A DNA stretch of 64,000 nt from Minisyncoccota bacterium (GTDB lineage Bacteria > Patescibacteriota > Minisyncoccia > Phycocordibacterales > VMEP01): contig JBAZUR010000002.1 of NCBI GenBank assembly GCA_041661305.1, positions 10,621 to 74,620 on the forward strand, in the 5' to 3' direction. Made by a program: the position numbers and the translations under genes. Of the stretch, positions 7,156 to 57,410 are shown piece by piece. Positions within the stretch are counted from its first letter, which is position 1, and each line of letters opens with the position of its first letter. The notes below the pieces were generated by a model. It did no database searches and had not been told where the DNA came from. It saw nothing but the letters and a program-made list of their open reading frames with translations.

Positions 7156-7578
7156 TCATTCTTCTTTGCTCGTGGTTAAAACATCAAGACCCCAAGAGAG
7201 ATCTTTTAGTTTACTATCAGAGAGGCGCGGAACCAAAGAATTGTCAGTGTCACCCTTCTTTGCTTTTTTTGTTATCTCCATTGGCCGATTTTCTTTTTTC
7301 CAAATATATAGTTTTTCTCCGAGGTAGTAGCGAAAAGCTGCCTCAACGCTGTAAATGAACGGTTTGTCATTTATTTTATAAAATGCAAAAGCAACTGCGA
7401 GGGCTACTATAGGAATCACAAAAAATAGAGTAATTACTAAAGGAAGAAAGCTGTCTAGTATTTTATACACAACAAAAGCCATTCCCGCTCCACCAGCTAG
7501 GTAAATAAATTGTTTAAAAGTAAATGGACCAAAAATCTTATCCTCTACTTCAATAAATTGCGGAACATGAAACTGCAT
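7156..7578 (-). CDS. VirB3-like / PrgI-family small T4SS membrane protein
   Basis: 140 aa. The N-terminus ...EDKIFGPFTFKQFIYLAGGAGMAF is followed by two TM helices, which is the PrgI/TcpE-like pattern. It sits immediately upstream of virB4. Confidence 0.5.
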   Translation of the reverse strand: MQFHVPQFIEVEDKIFGPFTFKQFIYLAGGAGMAFVVYKILDSFLPLVITLFFVIPIVALAVAFAFYKINDKPFIYSVEAAFRYYLGEKLYIWKKENRPMEITKKAKKGDTDNSLVPRLSDSKLKDLSWGLDVLTTSKEE

Positions 7579-7626: not shown

Positions 7627-7718
7627 TATTTTTCTCTTTAAAAACACGTATAAAAATCTGCTGATTTTTTACTATACTCACGCCGTCGCGTTGCGTAATG
7701 TTTTTAAGGAGAAAAACT
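7627..7718 (-). promoter_or_regulatory. Copy A of a conserved ~90-nt element (IR-bracketed, promoter-like or structured 5' leader), upstream of the VirB3-like gene
   Basis: Shares CATTACG-17nt-GAGTATAGTAAA...TCAGCAGA...TTATACG with copies B and C. The flanking 18-20 bp inverted repeat and two internal hairpins co-vary between copies. Confidence 0.5.
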
Positions 7719-14156: not shown

Positions 14157-14230
14157 AGATTGTTTAAGTATAGCAAGGAAATCGTTGTTTTTCTGTGGAT
14201 TCTTTGGTTTGTGTGGATATTCTTTTTTAA

Positions 14231-14316
14231 AATACTTTTGAAAAACACGTATAATTTTTTGCTAAAAATTTACTATGCTCGGCTCGTCAGCCTGCGCAAT
14301 GTTTTTCGAAAGTATT
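14231..14316 (-). promoter_or_regulatory. Copy B of the conserved ~90-nt IR-bracketed element, upstream of the gene at 13212-14156
   Basis: Core is CATTGCG-17nt-GAGCATAGTAAATTTTTAGCAAAAAATTATACGTG. It is flanked by AATACTTTTGAAAAACAC and GTTTTTCGAAAGTATT, a 16/17 inverted repeat. Confidence 0.5.
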
Positions 14317-14344
14317 TTGTTTTACTTTGTTATATAATAGTTGT

Positions 14345-25586: not shown

Positions 25587-26513
25587 ATGACTCAAGATTT
25601 AAAGAGCTTAAAACAACAATTTCTCGAATATATAGAAATAGAACGCGGGAGAAGCTTGAAAACAGTACGTAATTACGATGCATATTTAGAGCGTTTTCTT
25701 GTTCAAACAAACGCAAAACACCCCAAAGATATAACCGACGACTCTGTTCGTGAATTTCGTCTATGGCTTAATAGACAAGAAGGTCGGCGCGAGCGCGGAA
25801 TGAGTGCTGGAACTTTAAAAAAGAAGACACAGAACTATTATTTGATTGCGTTACGAATTTTTCTTAAGTATTTAATGAAAAGAGGAATCGAGGCGATGCC
25901 ACCAGACCGTATTGAATTGGCAAAGGTATCAGAACGCTCGCTTGACCTTATTTCTCTTGATGAATTAGAGAGATTACTTAAAGCCCCTAATGGCGATGAT
26001 TTAAAAAGTTTGCGTGATAAAGCAATTTTAGAACTACTTTTTTCTACAGGACTTCGTGTTTCTGAGCTTTGCTCTCTTCCCCGTGATATTGATTTACGTA
26101 AAGATGAATTTTCTGTTAGGGGGAAAGGTGAAAAAGTCCGCGTTGTTTTTCTTTCGGATTCGGCAAAGGAGGCGATTAAAAAATACTTAGCTAAGCGTCC
26201 GGATATGGAAGACGTCCTTTTTGTTGGCACTGGAAGTATTGGCAAGAAAAAAGGAGAAATAACACATCTCACAACTCGTTCCGTGGAAAGAATTGTCGCG
26301 CAATATGCAATTAAGGCGGGTATCTCAAAAAAAGTAACCCCTCACGTTATTCGCCACTCATTCGCTACAGATTTACTGGGTAACGGGGCAGATATTCGCT
26401 CTGTTCAAATGATGCTCGGCCATGCGAGTATTTCCACTACTCAAATCTATACCCACGTGACAGATAAAGCTCTTAGGGAGATACATAAAAAATTCCACAG
26501 CGGTGGAAAGTAA
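25587..26513 (+). CDS. xerC: Tyrosine recombinase of the XerC/XerD family
   Basis: 308 aa with a core-binding domain and a C-terminal catalytic region (RHSFATDLLGNGADIRSVQMMLGHASISTTQIYTHV) that carries the R..H..Y residues. Confidence 0.85.
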   Translation: MTQDLKSLKQQFLEYIEIERGRSLKTVRNYDAYLERFLVQTNAKHPKDITDDSVREFRLWLNRQEGRRERGMSAGTLKKKTQNYYLIALRIFLKYLMKRGIEAMPPDRIELAKVSERSLDLISLDELERLLKAPNGDDLKSLRDKAILELLFSTGLRVSELCSLPRDIDLRKDEFSVRGKGEKVRVVFLSDSAKEAIKKYLAKRPDMEDVLFVGTGSIGKKKGEITHLTTRSVERIVAQYAIKAGISKKVTPHVIRHSFATDLLGNGADIRSVQMMLGHASISTTQIYTHVTDKALREIHKKFHSGGK

Positions 26514-27680: not shown

Positions 27681-29150
27681 CTATTTTACCCAGTGTTTTT
27701 TTCTTATCTCAGATACTTCTTTTGATTCCTCCTCCTCTTTTTTAGCCTTCCCCTCCTCGCCAAGTTTTTTTAGCTCGTCGATAGATAGTTTTATTAATAC
27801 AAGTGAACGTTTTTCTAGATACTCAGTGGTATTTCTGTCTGGCTCATCAAGTACTTCCTCAAGAAGTGCGTGTAAAACATAGCCAATCTTTGGTCCAGGA
27901 GTTTCATGTGTAACTTCCATAATACGTTTTCCGTCAATCTTTAGCATCGCTACCGATATCGGTGCACGCATCGCTTCTTCAATCATAGACTCATATTTTC
28001 TAAGCCGATACGGGGTCTCTTTTGGTCTGCCCATGCCGATACGGTCGCATGCTCTAACTTTCATTAAATCCCAAACATTTTCTGGTCCAACATTTTTTAC
28101 AATCCTTCTTACAGCGGAAAGGGTTATTTTTTCTACATCTGAGAAAAATAAATGATATCTCACTAGTTTAGAAACAACCTCTACTATATCTTTTGGAAAA
28201 CGCATCCTCTCCAGTATTTTTTTTGTTACACGTGAACCAACAACATCGTGCCCATAGAATGTATAATCTTTCTTTTCATCTGACCAACGCCTAGTTTCGG
28301 GCTTAGAAACATCATGAAATAAGGCTGCAAGTCTCACGTGTAACGGCCAATCTCTATCTGCCGAGTGCTGTAAAGCTCTTAGGTTGTGCTCCCAAACATC
28401 GTAAATATGGTCGCCATTCTGTTTAACCTTAATGCCAGCTTCTGTTTCAGGTGAAACATATTTGAGCACGCCAAGACGATTTGCTAAGACGATTCCTATC
28501 ATTGGGTTCGGTGACATTACTAGTTTTATAAATTCATCACGAATCCTTTCCAGCGCTATGTTTTTTAGGTTATTCACATTGTTTTCCAACGCTTTTTCTG
28601 TCTCGCTGTTAATCATGAAACCTAATTCTGCGGCCAAACGAACTGCTCTCATTACACGAAGTGCATCTTCGGCAAATCTTTCTTCTGGATTGCCAACTGC
28701 TCGGATAATCTTGTCCTTTATATCCTTTTGTCCGTTATACGGATCAACAATTTGTCCTTTAGTAATATCATACGCAATCGCGTTGATTGTGAAGTCACGC
28801 CTCCTTAGGTCGTCTTCTAGATTTTTACTAAAAACAACAGAGTCTGGTCTGCGGTAATCACTATACTTCCCCTCTATTCTGTAGGGAGTTATTTCTACAA
28901 TTTTTAACGTCTCGTCTGTTTCACTTTCATCTACAACACCAACTGTTCCGTACTCATTTTCGTAAAATGTTTTTGGAAAAATTTTTATAATATCCTCCGG
29001 TCTTGCATTTGTCGTGAAGTCCCAATCTTTTGGTTTTTTACCCGCTAAAACATCTCGAACACACCCCCCAACTAAATATGCTTCAAAACCGGCTTTTTCT
29101 AGAGATTCGCTTATGGCGCTTATGTTTTTGGGGATATTTTCAGGCTTCAT
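27681..29150 (-). CDS. cca: CCA-adding tRNA nucleotidyltransferase with HD domain
   Basis: GGCVRDVLAG and DWDFTT identify the polymerase-beta head. An HD domain follows. Total length 489 aa. Confidence 0.9.
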   Translation of the reverse strand: MKPENIPKNISAISESLEKAGFEAYLVGGCVRDVLAGKKPKDWDFTTNARPEDIIKIFPKTFYENEYGTVGVVDESETDETLKIVEITPYRIEGKYSDYRRPDSVVFSKNLEDDLRRRDFTINAIAYDITKGQIVDPYNGQKDIKDKIIRAVGNPEERFAEDALRVMRAVRLAAELGFMINSETEKALENNVNNLKNIALERIRDEFIKLVMSPNPMIGIVLANRLGVLKYVSPETEAGIKVKQNGDHIYDVWEHNLRALQHSADRDWPLHVRLAALFHDVSKPETRRWSDEKKDYTFYGHDVVGSRVTKKILERMRFPKDIVEVVSKLVRYHLFFSDVEKITLSAVRRIVKNVGPENVWDLMKVRACDRIGMGRPKETPYRLRKYESMIEEAMRAPISVAMLKIDGKRIMEVTHETPGPKIGYVLHALLEEVLDEPDRNTTEYLEKRSLVLIKLSIDELKKLGEEGKAKKEEEESKEVSEIRKKHWVK

Positions 29151-29223
29151 TATCTAAAAATATTACTCCAGGTTTTGATATTTTCCTAATTTTCCTTATG
29201 ATGTAAGGGTTCTCACAGTTTTA

Positions 29224-29295
29224 GCCCCCGTAGTGAAATGGATATCACGACAGTCTTCGAAACTGTTATTCCAGGTTCGAATCCTGGCGAGGGCA
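29224..29295 (+). tRNA. tRNA-Arg (anticodon TCG)
   Basis: Cloverleaf: acceptor GCCCCCG/CGAGGGC with one C-A mismatch at 5-68, D arm GTGA..TCAC, anticodon arm ACAGT-CTTCGAA-ACTGT, T arm CCAGG-TTCGAAT-CCTGG. No CCA is encoded. A promoter-like TTGATA-16-TATGAT lies at 29174-29201. Confidence 0.6.
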
Positions 29296-29482
29296 CACGA
29301 AGTGTGCCTGAAGCAGTGAGACGCCTGCGCGTCTCACGTCAGGATTCGAAAGCCGGAATATGTTTTTGTAATCAAAAACATTGAGGCGGGGTTGCAGGTT
29401 CTTAGTACGTGAAGAATGTACACATTTGAACGTGCTTAGAAACCTGTGACCGAATCCCAGTAGAAAAATATCCGTGACCTAA
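29296..29482 (+). repeat. tRNA-trailer module, copy 1 (after tRNA-Arg)
   Basis: Two hairpins, then CAGGATTCGAA (antisense of the tRNA-Arg T-loop/stem), then AAGCCGGA...GAGGCGGGGT, a variable hairpin, ...TGTGACCGAATCC and ATATCCGTGACC. It shares its core with copies 2 and 3. Confidence 0.45.
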
Positions 29483-29551
29483 TCTTTTATTGACGTAACC
29501 TCTATATTATTTGAACTTATTTAAAACTCTGTTAAAATACACCGATAAATT

Positions 29552-29622
29552 GCGGGTATGGTTTAGTGGTAGAACACGTCCTTGCCAAGGATGAGACGGG
29601 GTTTCGATTACCCCTACCCGCA
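29552..29622 (+). tRNA. tRNA-Gly (anticodon GCC)
   Basis: Acceptor GCGGGTA/TACCCGC, anticodon loop TTGCCAA, T arm GGGGT-TTCGATT-ACCCC. No CCA is encoded. A promoter-like TTGAAC-16-TAAAAT lies at 29508-29535. Confidence 0.85.
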
Positions 29623-29672
29623 CAAAGCGTTAAGAAAACATGCTAGGAATAGCATGTTTTCTTAACGCTTTG
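29623..29672. repeat. Perfect 23-bp inverted repeat (hairpin) immediately 3' of tRNA-Gly(GCC)
   Basis: CAAAGCGTTAAGAAAACATGCTA-GGAA-TAGCATGTTTTCTTAACGCTTTG. No T-run follows. Confidence 0.7.
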
Positions 29673-29989
29673 TGGGTCGGAGTATTATTGTTTACCAATA
29701 CAATAACTGTAATAATTTTTCTGTATTAACGGCTTACGGACAGTTTTTTGCAAGAAAGATAGAGACTTGTAAACAGTGCTACTTTAAAAAATAAGGCTAA
29801 AATAGGTCAAATCTGGGGATAAGTCAGTGGACAATGTTAATAAGAGACATAAAAACTGTCCAAGAAAATGGCCTTTATTTGTCTAAAAATGGCTTTAAAT
29901 AAGGATAATTTGTCTTTATTGGGACTTTCCTTTCTAAAAGTTTCACGTGAAACAAACATATCCAAAGTTGTGGTGTATAATTATTTTTT

Positions 29990-30400
29990 ATGAGCTCAAG
30001 TGTTGAGAGAAATCAAGCGAAACAGATGGTTGGAAGGGTCGGTGAAGATTTGGCTTGTAGATTTCTGGAAAAGAAAGGTTTTAGTATTGTAGATAGAAAT
30101 TACCGAAAGTTTACTGGGGAAATAGATATAATTGCGAAAAAGGACAAAACTTTGTACTTTATTGAAGTTAAGACTGTTTCCCGTGAAAACTTTGGCTTGG
30201 AAGACGTGTGGATTGGGCACCGCGCGGAGGACAATCTCCACCCTCAAAAATTAAAACGTCTTAGTAGAGCCATTAACTCATATCTTCAAGAGAAGAGGGT
30301 AGACGTAGATTGTAATTGGCAGTGCGACGCCGTTATTGTCAATTTGTTTACAAAGGAGAAAAAAGCAAAAATTAAGTATTTAGAAAATATTTTTGCGTAA
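29990..30400 (+). CDS. yraN: YraN/UPF0102-family endonuclease
   Basis: 136 aa; GEDLACRFLEKKGFSIVDRNYR...GEIDIIAKKD...YFIEVKT matches the family. An extended -10 box (TGGTGTATAAT) ends ~8 nt before the ATG. Confidence 0.7.
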   Translation: MSSSVERNQAKQMVGRVGEDLACRFLEKKGFSIVDRNYRKFTGEIDIIAKKDKTLYFIEVKTVSRENFGLEDVWIGHRAEDNLHPQKLKRLSRAINSYLQEKRVDVDCNWQCDAVIVNLFTKEKKAKIKYLENIFA

Positions 30401-30504
30401 TTTTTTAATTTTTATGATAGGATTGGTGGGTTGTCGTGTTTTATAAGCGTTTGTTTTAATGGCAGGTGGAAGGGAATACGTCTGCGTGGGGTCAAAAAAT
30501 GTTT

Positions 30505-30541
30505 CGGGGTGTAGTATAGAGGTAGTACGTCTGCTTTGGGG
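30505..30541 (+). repeat. Orphan duplicate of the 5' half of tRNA-Pro
   Basis: A 37-nt copy of the first ~36 nt of tRNA-Pro (30579-30614), differing only at the last base. A more decayed copy lies at ~30462-30490, where ...GAATACGTCTGCGTGGGG is recognisable. Confidence 0.6.
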
Positions 30542-30578
30542 TTGTGAAGATTTTCCGTTTGGTTTTTGGTTATATCGC

Positions 30579-30649
30579 CGGGGTGTAGTATAGAGGTAGT
30601 ACGTCTGCTTTGGGAGCAGATAGCCCGAGTTCGATTCTCGGCACCCCGA
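30579..30649 (+). tRNA. tRNA-Pro (anticodon TGG)
   Basis: Acceptor CGGGGTG/CACCCCG, anticodon arm TCTGC-TTTGGGA-GCAGA, T arm CCGAG-TTCGATT-CTCGG, discriminator A. It is flanked by a 16/17 inverted repeat (GGTTGTGAAGATTTTCC at 30537-30553 and TTGAAAAATCTTCACAACC at 30673-30691). Confidence 0.85.
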
Positions 30650-30930
30650 CGATGTAACTAAACGGTTTGTGTTGAAAAATCTTCACAACCAGAAGTCTGG
30701 GAGACTTCTGTGGAAATTTCCATAAGAAATTTAGATAGCCCGAGTTCGATTCTCCCATCCCGCACAGATTTTAGCGAAGCGAAAAGCTGGGCGGGATGAG
30801 CAAGCAAACTGCTTTGCTTGCGTGGAGAATCGAAAGCCGGAGCATGTCGCCCTGCGACGGCGAGGCGGGGTCGAGAGTACTTATGAGCGAAGCGAATTAG
30901 TAACTCGTGACCGATTCTCGGCACCCCGAC
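30650..30930 (+). repeat. tRNA-trailer module, copy 2 (after tRNA-Pro), including a chimeric tRNA 3' fragment
   Basis: At 30734-30766 the T arm is Pro-like (GATAGCCCGAGTTCGATT) and the acceptor 3' strand is Gly(TCC)-like (CTCCCATCCCGCA). Then GCGGGATG (antisense), a hairpin, GGAGAATCGAAAGCCGGAGC...GAGGCGGGGT, a hairpin, CGTGACCGATTCTCGGCACCCCGAC. The last 19 nt repeat the tRNA-Pro 3' end. Confidence 0.45.
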
Positions 30931-30949
30931 AATGTAGCTAAGTGGGTTT

Positions 30950-32101
30950 TTATCCCTCGATTTCTTTTGTTAATAAATCTATAAGCGGTTTAGATAGGAC
31001 TTCTTTGAAGTTTTTTTGAGCGATATCTAAATCTTGAGAGATAAATTCATTTAATGTTTGTCCGGTTTCAGTTTTTATTTCTCGGTCAATATGTCCAGGT
31101 GTTATCGCGAAAAGAACCCGTTCTCCAGTTGAGGTGTTATTTGTGCTTGTAGTTATTATTCCCTCAAGCTTGCCGGTTGATTGGTTGATAACAGCTCCAC
31201 CCGAAGATCCTCTCTGCGAAAGAATATTCCCTTCAACGGAAATAACATCTAGAAGGGCTTTATCATAGAAATTATAAAGCTCCTTAATAACTCCTGTGCT
31301 TGAGGTTAAGGAAAGGCTTGTTTGTATTGTGGCGCCACCCAAGAAACCAGCTGGATAGGCGATAATAAGCATTGGAAGAGAGCGAAGAACCAGTTCTGGA
31401 TTAATATTAGCTTCAATATAAGGGAACGATTGAGGTAATGGTTGTCCGTCTGGTTTACCAACCGCTCGTAGTAAGGCAAAATCGTTTTCACCGGTGCCTG
31501 TTGGATCTTCTTGTTTGATTGTTTGTTTATTTTCTTCTATCCATTTTTTTGAAATATAAAGTGGTTCAATTAAAAAAGTAGGGGAAGCGGGGGAGCCTTG
31601 TCTGGCAACACATGTTATGTAGTTTTTTACACCATAGTCTCGAAGGAGGAAATATTGTCCAATATGAGCATTTGTGAGGATAACCCCCTTGTTGTTTATA
31701 AAGACACCACTTCCAGAAAGAGGCTTGAAATCACCGCCATTTTGAGTGGTACAGAGTATGTTTACAATCGCCGGGCGAGCTTTTTCGTTAAGCTGTTCAA
31801 GCGGGAGGAGTTGTATGGTGATAGTTTTTGGCGTTGTTGAGGCTGGGATATTTGTTTGGACGAGCTTTTGTTTAGTTGTTGTTGATGTTTTTTGAGTGAC
31901 TAAGTTTTTAGATAATAGTTCTGAGGTGGTAGTTCCAGTCTTGGTTACTGGGGTTGTTGAAGATATTACGCTTTCAGTTTTTAGAACGTTAATCGGTTCT
32001 GTTTCTGTGGGTGTGGATGTTTTAGCAGGGAGTATAAAAAGAAGAGCAATAGTTGCGCCCAAAAGAATCTTTTTTATAGAAATTCCAAAAATTTTAAACA
32101 T
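30950..32101 (-). CDS. Secreted trypsin-like serine protease (S1/HtrA-like, no obvious PDZ domain)
   Basis: N-terminal TM helix and a Thr-rich linker. Catalytic motifs TNAHI, D and GSSGGAV are present. Confidence 0.7.
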   Translation of the reverse strand: MFKIFGISIKKILLGATIALLFILPAKTSTPTETEPINVLKTESVISSTTPVTKTGTTTSELLSKNLVTQKTSTTTKQKLVQTNIPASTTPKTITIQLLPLEQLNEKARPAIVNILCTTQNGGDFKPLSGSGVFINNKGVILTNAHIGQYFLLRDYGVKNYITCVARQGSPASPTFLIEPLYISKKWIEENKQTIKQEDPTGTGENDFALLRAVGKPDGQPLPQSFPYIEANINPELVLRSLPMLIIAYPAGFLGGATIQTSLSLTSSTGVIKELYNFYDKALLDVISVEGNILSQRGSSGGAVINQSTGKLEGIITTSTNNTSTGERVLFAITPGHIDREIKTETGQTLNEFISQDLDIAQKNFKEVLSKPLIDLLTKEIEG

Positions 32102-32169: not shown

Positions 32170-32240
32170 GCGGGATTAGTTAAATGGTATAACTCCAGTT
32201 TTCCAAACTGGTGTCGGGAGTTCGATTCTCCCATCCCGCA
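32170..32240 (+). tRNA. tRNA-Gly (anticodon TCC)
   Basis: Acceptor GCGGGAT/ATCCCGC, D arm GTTA..TAAC, anticodon arm CCAGT-TTTCCAA-ACTGG, T arm GGGAG-TTCGATT-CTCCC, discriminator A. Confidence 0.85.
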
Positions 32241-32385
32241 CTGAATTTTAACAAAACTAGCTAAGGCTAGTTTTGTTGCGGGATGGGAGAATCGAAAGCC
32301 GGAGCGCGACGGCGTGAGGCGGGGTAGCGGAATTTTCCAGCAGGAAAATATCCGTGACCGATTCCCATCCCGCACCAGATATACA
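32241..32385 (+). repeat. tRNA-trailer module, copy 3 (after tRNA-Gly(TCC))
   Basis: A 12-bp hairpin (AACAAAACTAGC-TAAG-GCTAGTTTTGTT), then GCGGGATGGGAGAATCGAA (exact antisense of the tRNA 3' end), AGCCGGAGC...GAGGCGGGGT, a hairpin, CCGTGACC and GATTCCCATCCCGCACCA (sense 3' end plus CCA). A terminator lies at 32390-32422. Confidence 0.5.
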
Positions 32386-57318: not shown

Positions 57319-57410
57319 ATATTCCCCTTTGAAATGCATTACGGAGCGTGGCGACGCGAGTATAGTAAATTTTCAGCAGAAAATTATACGCGCATTTCAA
57401 AGGGGAATAT
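57319..57410 (+). promoter_or_regulatory. Copy C of the conserved ~90-nt IR-bracketed element, upstream of rpsL
   Basis: A perfect 19-bp inverted repeat (ATATTCCCCTTTGAAATGC ... GCATTTCAAAGGGGAATAT) brackets CATTACG-17nt-GAGTATAGTAAATTTTCAGCAGAAAATTATACGCG. A possible upstream promoter TGTATAAAT lies near 57268. Confidence 0.5.

Follow-up and report, generated by a model that had tools for sequence, protein, structure and literature searches.

A 64,000 nt stretch of contig JBAZUR010000002.1 from a Minisyncoccota bacterium (assembly GCA_041661305.1, positions 10,621 to 74,620 of the forward strand; hereafter the window) carries a cluster of four transfer RNA (tRNA) genes on the same strand at 29.2-32.4 kb, i.e. 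Arg-TCG, Gly-GCC, Pro-TGG and Gly-TCC, on which ARAGORN and Rfam agree. A conserved module lies behind three of these genes and a remnant behind the fourth, Gly-GCC. We propose that such modules are non-autonomous integrative mini-elements that enter the T-loops of tRNA and transfer-messenger RNA (tmRNA) genes by means of a folded single-stranded site, resembling those of integrons (attC) and CTX phage, and of an enzyme supplied in trans. For this statement as a whole we estimate a probability of around 0.5. The element model alone is very probable, and the step through single-stranded DNA is the tentative part, to which we would give slightly less than even odds.

The modules share one order, i.e. 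the tRNA 3' end (copy a), a spacer hairpin, an inverted copy of that end (a'), the core, and a second direct copy (a''). They measure around 100-170 nt in the cluster, and elements overall around 95-250 nt. The core, with the pattern GAAAGCCGGAG...GAGGCGGGGT...GTGAC, forms a three-way junction: helix P1 is made by a' with the tRNA segment, P2 by GCC, an internal loop, a hairpin and GGC, and P3 by GGT, a hairpin and ACC. All three cores in the window adopt this fold (z-scores between -4 and -7). When one genome per species was scanned for the pattern, at least 120 loci came up, and a covariance model, R1, was built from 33 cores and applied to the first 100 listed loci; the loci compared with the window carry L-numbers as labels. 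The features at tRNA-Gly(TCC), tRNA-Arg and tRNA-Gly(GCC) are as follows.

32170-32241 (+): tRNA-Gly(TCC) (ARAGORN, Rfam), of which 32223-32241 is copy a.
32242-32293 (+): Gly-TCC spacer with a terminator-like hairpin, then a' at 32277-32293 (repeat finder).
32294-32359 (+): compact 66-nt Gly-TCC core, a member of the core alignment (R1 95 bits, E = 3e-30).
32359-32375 (+): Gly-TCC a'', in which the 3' end is repeated in direct orientation but lacks one base (repeat finder).
29224-29296 (+): tRNA-Arg(TCG) (ARAGORN; Rfam tRNA, 65.2 bits), the 3' end of which, from T-loop C56, is copy a of the Arg module.
29276-29289 / 29337-29350 (+): inverted repeat at the Arg locus, 93 % (repeat finder).
29316-29337 (+): extra hairpin P0 of the Arg module, gtgagacgcctgcgcgtctcac.
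29337-29347 (+): a' of the Arg module, cgtcaggattc, which apart from one mismatch reverse-complements the tRNA-Arg T-loop and the 3' strand of its T-stem.
29348-29451 (+): core of the Arg module, i.e. GAAAGCCGGAAT, a long P2, GAGGCGGGGT, a long P3 and GTGACC (R1 49.0 bits, E = 2.5e-14; RNA fold z = -5.9).
29451-29484 (+): decayed Arg a'' (ccgaatccca), then the 3' remnant of an older module (gaaaaatatccgtgacc and taatc) (repeat finder).
29552-29623 (+): tRNA-Gly(GCC) (ARAGORN, Rfam).
29621-29684 (+): perfect palindrome with 25-nt arms starting from the last bases of tRNA-Gly(GCC), then tgggtcggag (repeat finder).

At Gly-TCC, a' and the GAA that opens the core jointly complement the tRNA 3' end at 20/20 positions, and the element at 32223-32359, folded as DNA, reaches -49.2 kcal/mol (z = -10.9). 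The palindrome behind tRNA-Gly(GCC) is probably the a/spacer/a' hairpin of a module that has lost its core, with tgggtcggag as a possible a' remnant, and all four tRNAs of the cluster bear the module design or its remains.

The clearest trace of an insertion is found at tRNA-Pro. An earlier note, made from the sequence alone, had read this locus as a recombination patchwork and integration hotspot with a Pro/Gly chimeric tRNA fragment downstream of the intact gene. The chimera is real: 30733-30744 is of Pro type, 30755-30765 of Gly-TCC type, and the segment in between, 30745-30754 (ttcgattctc), occurs in both tRNAs; the stretch 30742-30772 matches 32218-32248, the 3' end of tRNA-Gly(TCC), at 94 % identity (repeat finder). 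What had been missed is the 165-nt conserved structured block between the two junctions of the chimera, which recurs at 29337-29459 and 32277-32375, as well as the resumption of the Pro 3' end at 30912-30929 (cgattctcggcaccccga), followed by a diverged copy of the downstream flank of tRNA-Pro (30621-30668 vs 30901-30948, 79 % over 48 nt). The core of the block, GAAAGCCGGAGC...GAGGCGGGGT...GTGACC, recurs at 32294-32359 (Gly-TCC) and at 29348-29451 (Arg). The locus thus reads as follows.

30579-30650 (+): intact tRNA-Pro(TGG) (ARAGORN, Rfam).
30733-30746 (+): orphan tRNA-Pro fragment, positions ~41-55 (agatagcccgagtt), the target side of the left junction.
30747-30765 (+): copy a brought in by the element, reaching from C56 as far as the 3' end, of Gly-TCC type from 30755; 20/20 complementary to 32277-32296.
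30766-30790 (+): spacer hairpin with a GCGAAGC tip (repeat finder).
30791-30831 (+): bipartite Gly-type a', i.e. gcgggatg (acceptor complement), hairpin P0 at 30799-30823 and ggagaatc (T-stem/T-loop complement).
30832-30912 (+): module core (R1 57.7 bits, E = 2.5e-17).
30912-30948 (+): a'' (right junction), the original Pro 3' end from C56 (30912-30929) and the diverged downstream flank.

The earlier view that the chimera arose by an exchange inside the shared T-loop segment ttcgattctc stands. Its partner was the left end of an inserted element and not, as had been proposed, the resident tRNA-Gly(TCC) gene 1.4 kb away, because the reciprocal junction lies only ~150 nt downstream, at 30912, and because the spacer, extra hairpin, P2 and P3 all differ from those of the resident Gly-TCC module. 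Among the loci compared, the nearest relatives of the Pro-locus element are the Gly-TCC module in L013 and the Pro module in L018.

The same core is present in more than 100 loci of Patescibacteria, belonging to many classes, and of Elusimicrobia. R1 confirms 110 copies among the matches listed and rejects every GC-rich match from outside the candidate phyla radiation (CPR), so that the pattern matches in Streptomyces, Micromonospora, Rhodobacteraceae and others, which fail the covariance model, are due to chance. Copies in Elusimicrobia, either model-confirmed or pattern-matched, are found at L011, L079, L089, L103, L107 and L111, with two contigs stemming from one genome; unless these contigs are mis-binned, the family reaches beyond Patescibacteria.

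Linkage to tRNA genes is tight and oriented. Among the matches listed, a tRNA or tmRNA gene lies on the same strand no more than 600 nt upstream of 94 of the 109 model-defined copies (no more than 150 nt for 85 of them; median 57 nt), and no copy has a tRNA solely on the opposite strand; these 109 copies cover at least 16 isotypes and tmRNA. Modules at tmRNA 3' ends occur in L017, L082 and L086 (by sequence also in L042), the bipartite a' complementing the acceptor and T-arm of the tmRNA.

The junctions obey strict rules on one side and loose ones on the other. In 79/79 copies the direct repeat starts exactly at T-loop C56, the module reading GTGAC/C where the tRNA reads GGTT/C, and the repeat is exact over at least 15 nt in 40 of the 79. 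Its right edge is ragged, lying mostly within 2 bases of the tRNA 3' end and in five cases 10-39 nt beyond it. The smallest element, L077, takes up ~95 nt; behind the tRNA come tca, an a' of 6 nt, the core of 66 nt and an a'' of 18 nt. A bipartite a', with the acceptor and T-stem/T-loop complements split by a 24-34-nt hairpin (P0) at the acceptor/T-stem boundary, which corresponds to tRNA position 7/8-48/49, is seen in 13/79 copies, and the Pro-locus and Arg-locus copies of the window have this form. In the remaining copies the pairing of a' with a is only 6-9 bp, and a test of tRNA-likeness found no T-loop in the module.

Which of these pairings is kept can be read from 21 copies in which a'' has drifted from the tRNA, at 59 differing positions altogether. 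There, a' pairs exclusively with the tRNA copy at 37 positions and exclusively with a'' at 3, while 14 positions permit both pairings and 5 permit neither; the counts are inflated, as single indels account for some of the differences, with the direction being clear. The maintained unit is therefore the tRNA from C56 to its 3' end, the spacer, a' and the core, with a/a' as the pairing that is kept, and a'' is a decaying leftover. This argues against a free-standing gene made of a', core and a'', and is what would be expected of an element that supplies a 3' end of its own as the replacement and is inserted behind T55, ahead of the original C56.

The core is a conserved structure. When 33 distinct 66-nt cores from different genomes were aligned without gaps and their pair counts compared with shuffles, 92.8 % of the cells were paired vs 77 % in the shuffles, and both sides change in 18/30 pairs, a figure reached by at most 1/500 shuffles; register-shifted controls were 37-45 % paired. 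One G.T pair is invariant in 33/33 cores and another position has 8 G.T. Considering that these wobbles would be mismatches on the opposite strand, it is the tRNA-sense strand that folds. The 33 cores also agree throughout in their unpaired GAAA, GGA/GA and GG.

A hint that this strand folds as single-stranded DNA comes from GCGAAGC, a classic and unusually stable DNA mini-hairpin, which occurs in module regions 17 times in sense vs once in antisense, 7-fold above background, while cUUCGg and GNRA-type loops are not enriched there. Together, GCGAAGC and GCGTAGC are seen at sense-strand hairpin tips at 7-10 times the background, with strand biases of 17:1 and 7:1, respectively, and in the window they stand at 30773-30779 and 30888-30894. 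In addition, the spacers are often terminator-like, which would limit co-transcription with the tRNA; this may likewise be counted as a hint of DNA folding. Two more such hints are the DNA fold energy of the element at 32223-32359 given above and the decay and nesting of integrated copies, which behave as selfish DNA does.

Comparison with relatives shows that modules turn over on the timescale separating these genomes and that gene order does not. L087, ~84 % identical in the flanking genes, has the window's order of Arg, Gly-GCC, yraN, 5'-half Pro copy, Pro, module and protease, with a different module content at Arg, Gly-GCC and Pro. Its Pro module has a Pro-type a', no Gly chimera and a 30-nt exact repeat at the right junction; its tRNA-Arg bears another module and another remnant than in the window; and behind its Gly-GCC lie an unrelated palindrome and a fresh, complete module whose a'' is perfect, where the window has a palindrome only. 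In L093 (~70 % identical), the tRNA-Pro is clean, with neither 5'-half copy nor module, while Gly-TCC has a module of its own. The earlier note had held that an identical arrangement in all relatives would leave chance decay as the explanation of the tRNA fragments; the arrangement is not identical, since module content varies between the window and L087 and the Pro site of L093 is empty, and the locus can be regarded as an integration hotspot.

Two further parts of the earlier interpretation did not survive this comparison. The open reading frame (ORF) at 30950-32101(-) does encode a trypsin-like protein, in line with the serine protease proposed, but it is not an island bracketed by tRNAs: homologues adjoin tRNA-Pro on the opposite strand in L087, L093 and L018 (83 %, 43 % and 42 % amino-acid identity, respectively). 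Since it is conserved beside tRNA-Pro, including the clean tRNA-Pro of L093, the protease gene is resident, and its role as cargo can be ruled out by synteny. Similarly, the ORF at 25587-26513 is a Xer-like tyrosine recombinase as claimed, but its ortholog is syntenic in L087, and the surroundings of modules show no enrichment in tyrosine recombinases (one in 602 kb from 88 loci). The observation was thus sound and its interpretation is partly supported, i.e. as regards the hotspot and the T-loop crossover, and mistaken on the partner, the protease and the recombinase link.

The modules encode no enzyme. In 88 module-bearing loci (602 kb), phmmer searches with two seeds found as the only tyrosine recombinase the syntenic Xer ortholog, and where modules have no tRNA close by, the products of the upstream ORFs are ribosomal protein L19, RluA, a methyltransferase and hypothetical proteins. 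One tyrosine recombinase in 88 loci, together with such ordinary upstream genes, indicates that the element is non-autonomous. A host Xer-type enzyme may be the trans-acting candidate. The Phage_integrase ORF of L109 can be discounted as the module's enzyme, as it lies upstream of a separate degenerate repeat and so belongs to another element.

Considering these findings, we suggest the following course of events. The element would insert between T55 and C56 of a tRNA or tmRNA gene. It would comprise a tRNA segment reaching from C56 as far as the 3' end, a spacer of varying content (none, a hairpin or, in rare cases, genes), a' and the core ending in GTGAC. Because it brings its own copy of this end, the interrupted gene would stay intact, and the displaced original 3' end would remain as a'' and decay. 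Before insertion, the tRNA-sense strand may fold as single-stranded DNA, the a/a' stem rebuilding the target duplex and the core marking the crossover point, and a recombinase supplied in trans, possibly a host Xer-like one, would exchange one strand with the tRNA gene, replication completing the insertion. Recombination of a folded single strand by one strand exchange is known from CTX phage attP(+) and integron attC sites, and one strand exchange of such a circle would yield the observed order of a, spacer or cargo, a', core and a''. The Pro/Gly chimera would then be an off-target event, in which an element built for Gly-TCC recombined within the 8-10 nt of T-loop and T-stem common to Gly-TCC and Pro, with a dead Pro/Gly hybrid as the left-hand product and the Pro 3' end as the right-hand one; the cell presumably tolerated it because an intact tRNA-Pro lies 83 nt upstream.

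Several points weigh against this proposal. The evidence for mobility, as we read it, consists of the turnover between relatives and the off-target chimera and does not include an excised circle. Among near-identical strains, none with a different arrangement was found, the only other contig encoding the same YraN protein (L123, from another sample) being identical across the cluster. The search for a linked integrase in the 88 loci (602 kb) identified no enzyme acting on the element, and IMG/VR, INPHARED and PLSDB yielded no module on any phage or plasmid able to deliver single-stranded DNA. The 6-9 bp of a'/a pairing in minimal forms is short for a site of two recombinase monomers, and the rewriting of the arms, in both orientations, for each new tRNA lies outside what the model explains. 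A sister family of modules with non-tRNA arms and no third repeat, described below, does not obviously fit integration. Finally, the G.T pairs and tandem G.A motifs of the fold fit RNA and DNA alike, the conserved junction bases resemble RNA tertiary motifs, and the position of P0 gives the bipartite copies the look of a stripped-down tRNA, which favours recognition as RNA.

The last of these points lead to a reading in which the module is a structured RNA, transcribed with or just after the tRNA, with a helix that resembles a tRNA (acceptor stem, P0, T-stem mimic) and has the P2/P3 junction as its cap. Such an RNA could serve as a substrate of RNase P, RNase Z or the CCA-adding enzyme, or as a guide for an RNA-guided recombinase, with a' and a'' pairing with both gene strands, and mobility, if any, would proceed through or be directed by RNA. 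This would account for every linked copy being oriented as its tRNA, for the strong covariation with G.U-compatible pairs, for the unpaired GAAA, GGA/GA and GG that look like RNA tertiary motifs, and for the placement of P0 exactly at the acceptor/T-stem boundary in 13/79 copies; a' and GAA form a 20-nt antisense to tRNA positions 54-73, and one RNA addressing both DNA strands has a precedent in TIGR-Tas (PMC12045711). However, many copies lie behind terminator-like hairpins, sister copies lie in untranscribed-looking intergenic DNA upstream of promoters, and integrated copies decay, nest and truncate as selfish DNA does. Moreover, the stem closing a', core and a'' is not maintained and a' instead tracks the tRNA copy, the hairpin tips favour the DNA-type GCGAAGC over RNA tetraloops, there is no Rfam match, no gene for a reverse transcriptase or guide-dependent enzyme lies nearby, and a'' is devoid of a non-encoded CCA. 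We therefore regard a structured RNA as unlikely.

Less likely still are scars of double-stranded attP/attB recombination, i.e. integrase islands inserted at the T-loop and deleted down to the att-proximal arm, the core being an arm region or a small cargo gene. Blocks of identity from the T-loop to the 3' end, tmRNA targets and tandem arrays, all seen here, are reportedly typical of tyrosine-integrase islands, as described by Williams in 2002, and the Phage_integrase ORF of L109 stands in the same array as modules. Such scars would, however, leave unexplained an a' that is re-matched to each tRNA and a strand-specific, covarying three-way junction. The minimal element of ~95 nt (L077), the use of the same core at 16 isotypes, the presence of an integrase in 1/88 loci and the position of the L109 integrase upstream of a separate degenerate repeat do not fit either.

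The model of the earlier note, i.e. direct exchange between tRNA-Pro and tRNA-Gly(TCC), with the protease segment mobile or invertible and the Xer-type recombinase 4 kb upstream as catalyst, is highly improbable: ttcgattctc is indeed common to both tRNAs, the 3' part of the chimera equals the resident Gly-TCC 3' end and a Xer-like gene is close by, but the reciprocal junction lies at 30912 and not at the Gly gene, the Gly-type segment comes with its own spacer, P0 and core, unlike the resident Gly locus, the protease is kept beside tRNA-Pro in L087, L093 and L018, and the Xer-like gene is syntenic, with no general association with modules.

Returning to the proposed mini-elements, we would class them, by analogy, as tRNA-targeting integrative elements with an attC/CTX-like folded site. 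They resemble the attP(+) of CTX-type integrative mobile elements exploiting Xer (IMEX) in having inverted partial target copies ~70-100 nt apart that can anneal in one strand into a duplex target, in an integrated order predicted by single strand exchange and in encoding no dedicated integrase. As in the CTX-type hairpin, a' complements both a and a'', by up to 20/20, and it tracks the tRNA copy. Unlike CTX-type IMEX, they target the T-loop of tRNA and tmRNA genes of 16 isotypes and not dif, their arms are specific to the tRNA and lack recognisable XerC/XerD boxes, the region between the arms is a three-way junction that is conserved and covaries, and they measure 0.1-0.2 kb and carry no phage genome.

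With integron attC sites they would share the conservation of a strand-specific structure over sequence, conserved unpaired features, a variable terminal structure and a non-autonomous nature, and with integron arrays the growth beside a fixed docking site (gene, module, gene, module, seen only in L081). In contrast to integrons, there are no R''/R' boxes (RYYYAAC/GTTRRRY), the module ending with GTGAC/C and starting with the tRNA complement and GAAAG; there is no IntI gene, attI or Pc platform, a tRNA or tmRNA gene forming the array head; the sense strand is folded, most units contain no gene, and an essential RNA gene regains 18-20 nt through the repeat.

Tyrosine-integrase islands and prophages likewise insert at the T-loop, bring a gene-restoring copy, leave attL/attR repeats reaching the tRNA 3' end, use tmRNA targets and accrete in tandem. 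They differ from our elements, which lack an integrase and essentially any cargo, have an inverted third att copy and a structured core, and serve at least 16 tRNA isotypes with one core family. Miniature inverted-repeat transposable elements (MITEs) and the REP, BIME, Correia and RUP repeats are equally small, non-coding, multicopy, hairpin-forming and dependent on an enzyme in trans, and the sister family looks like a plain foldback of this kind. In MITEs, on the other hand, the arms are a conserved terminal inverted repeat and not a copy of the local tRNA, and the fixed start, ragged end and extreme specificity for one tRNA position seen here replace a target-site duplication of fixed length.

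TIGR-Tas (PMC12045711) occurs in the same parasitic bacteria and shares the concept of one nucleic acid matching both target strands. Its units measure 36 nt with 9-nt spacers and alternating short (8-12-nt) repeats beside the gene of a Nop-domain Tas protein (PMC12045711), and identity with our module is ruled out by unit size, spacer length and the missing Tas gene.

The literature searched contained no description of the module, and the family appears to be undescribed as far as we found. In many classes of CPR bacteria and in some Elusimicrobia, a single structured module is found on the 3' side of tRNA and tmRNA genes, covering almost all isotypes. It explains patchworks of tRNA fragments that otherwise resemble random decay, can kill or hybridise single-copy tRNA genes (cf. 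the Pro/Gly chimera), supplies dispersed repeats able to drive rearrangement, and may confuse tRNA annotation and genome binning. It also offers a testable case of site-specific integration without a linked enzyme, with an inverted target copy built in. Bacteria of the CPR have tiny genomes and few recognised mobile elements. If the folded-strand model is true, the attC/CTX principle would extend to a new target and a new bacterial branch, which raises the question of how the arms are rewritten. If, in addition, the choice of target depends on nothing but the arms, nature would have provided a programmable, structure-guided system of single-strand DNA integration, and it could be fed by the DNA-uptake machinery on which these episymbionts depend. 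It is tempting to speculate about a new class of mobile DNA in Patescibacteria and Elusimicrobia, protein-less and only occasionally with genes on board, with a folded single strand that combines both strands of the target with a conserved three-way junction and is retargeted among tRNAs by arm rewriting via the universal T-loop dock, a claim that we would call doubtful at present.

Other known families were considered as well. With Rfam 15, the models of which include self-cleaving ribozymes, tmRNA and HEARO/omega RNAs, only the four tRNAs reach the gathering threshold in the window, the region yields nothing relevant at E-values up to 10 and a sister copy has no match. A resemblance to hammerhead, hepatitis delta virus and twister ribozymes or to the P4 of RNase P, noted by eye, was rejected as the junction strands misfit and Rfam gives no support. 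A retron non-coding RNA or a tRNA-primed reverse-transcription product can be discarded, there being no reverse transcriptase near any copy and no non-encoded CCA on a'', and so can an IS605/TnpB omega RNA, with neither TnpA nor TnpB near any copy and a direct repeat of 18-20 nt present. Carriage by phages or plasmids was dismissed, as the two IMG/VR pattern matches are chance hits in GC-rich coding DNA, and no blastn match to the module was found in INPHARED or PLSDB.

The sister family follows the pattern ATTRCG, P2, GAGYATAG, P3 (...TTTTCAGCAGAAAA...), TATACG. Its copies are intergenic, closed by 15-20-nt perfect inverted repeats of local non-tRNA sequence, and have no third direct arm copy. 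The window contains three.

57319-57410 (+): R1 44.8 bits; same P2 and distal P3, 19-nt perfect non-tRNA inverted repeat, intergenic just upstream of the rpsL promoter.
14229-14318 (-): R1 35.7 bits.
7632-7713 (-): R1 32.7 bits.

Other core families of the same design (a', a GAAAG-type junction, hairpins and a tRNA 3'-end copy) stand in tandem with the GAAAGCCGG family at L022, L044, L051, L075, L002 and L086. In the tandem or nested arrays of L022, L044, L051, L075 and L002, each unit, whatever its core family, is followed by another copy of the same tRNA 3' end; in the other core family of L022 the repeat starts at T54 and not at C56. A cassette-like arrangement is seen in L081 (597-2648, -), i.e. 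a DUF305-like gene, a module, a'', a 210-aa signal-peptide protein, a module, the same a'' and a 138-aa signal-peptide protein, the two small signal-peptide proteins having no Pfam match. At L064 (2335-2458), an orphan module with a tRNA-Leu-like 3' end lies directly 3' of rplS (L19) and rluA, and the nearest 2.3 kb contain no tRNA-Leu. Rearrangement may part modules from their tRNA.

The upstream side of tRNA-Pro has a history of its own. The duplicated 5' half, the flanking inverted repeat and the third, weaker copy pointed out in the earlier note are all present.

30471-30491 (+): third copy of the tRNA-Pro 5' half, matching 17/21 of the same tRNA-Pro segment; not in the module family and absent from L087.
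30505-30540 (+): exact copy of tRNA-Pro positions 1-36 (36/36 identical, the 37th base differing; repeat finder); apart from the module and lineage-specific.
30540-30554 (+): left arm of the inverted repeat, 15 nt perfect here and ~10/15 in L087.
30676-30690 (+): right arm (repeat finder).

By chance, ~0.01 perfect 15-nt repeats of this kind would be expected in 4 kb. On visual inspection, the 38 nt linking the 5'-half copy to tRNA-Pro match, imperfectly and in inverted orientation, the 40 nt 3' of the gene, so that tRNA-Pro sits in the loop of a long potential hairpin (30541-30690). Duplication of a 5' half was seen in 1/210 tRNAs examined, which rules it out as a general feature of the family. 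Neither this duplication nor the inverted repeat is explained by the module; both are older, specific to the lineage and predate the split from L087, and neither reappears at any other of the 210 tRNAs examined. In L087, the 5'-half pseudo-copy (7343-7410) is diverged and broken in the D-arm by a 57-nt foldback (cccgcccgtaccgaacg...cgttcgggcggg), another small palindromic insertion.

Inside the tRNA cluster, the ORF at 29990-30400(+), syntenic in L087, encodes a predicted nuclease of the UPF0102/YraN family with weaker NERD, Mrr_cat and Hjc matches. Judged by its sequence and place, it may be a junction-nuclease-like gene in the right position, with no evidence supporting an action on modules. 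Finally, L123 is 100 % identical to the window from ~29160 to 31946, with the same Pro locus, and diverges by 17 % at 28126-29150, where 176 of the 179 mismatches are found. This stretch covers the 3' two-thirds of a 489-aa ORF (27681-29150, -), and a sharp strain-level recombination boundary or a hypervariable gene adjoins tRNA-Arg.

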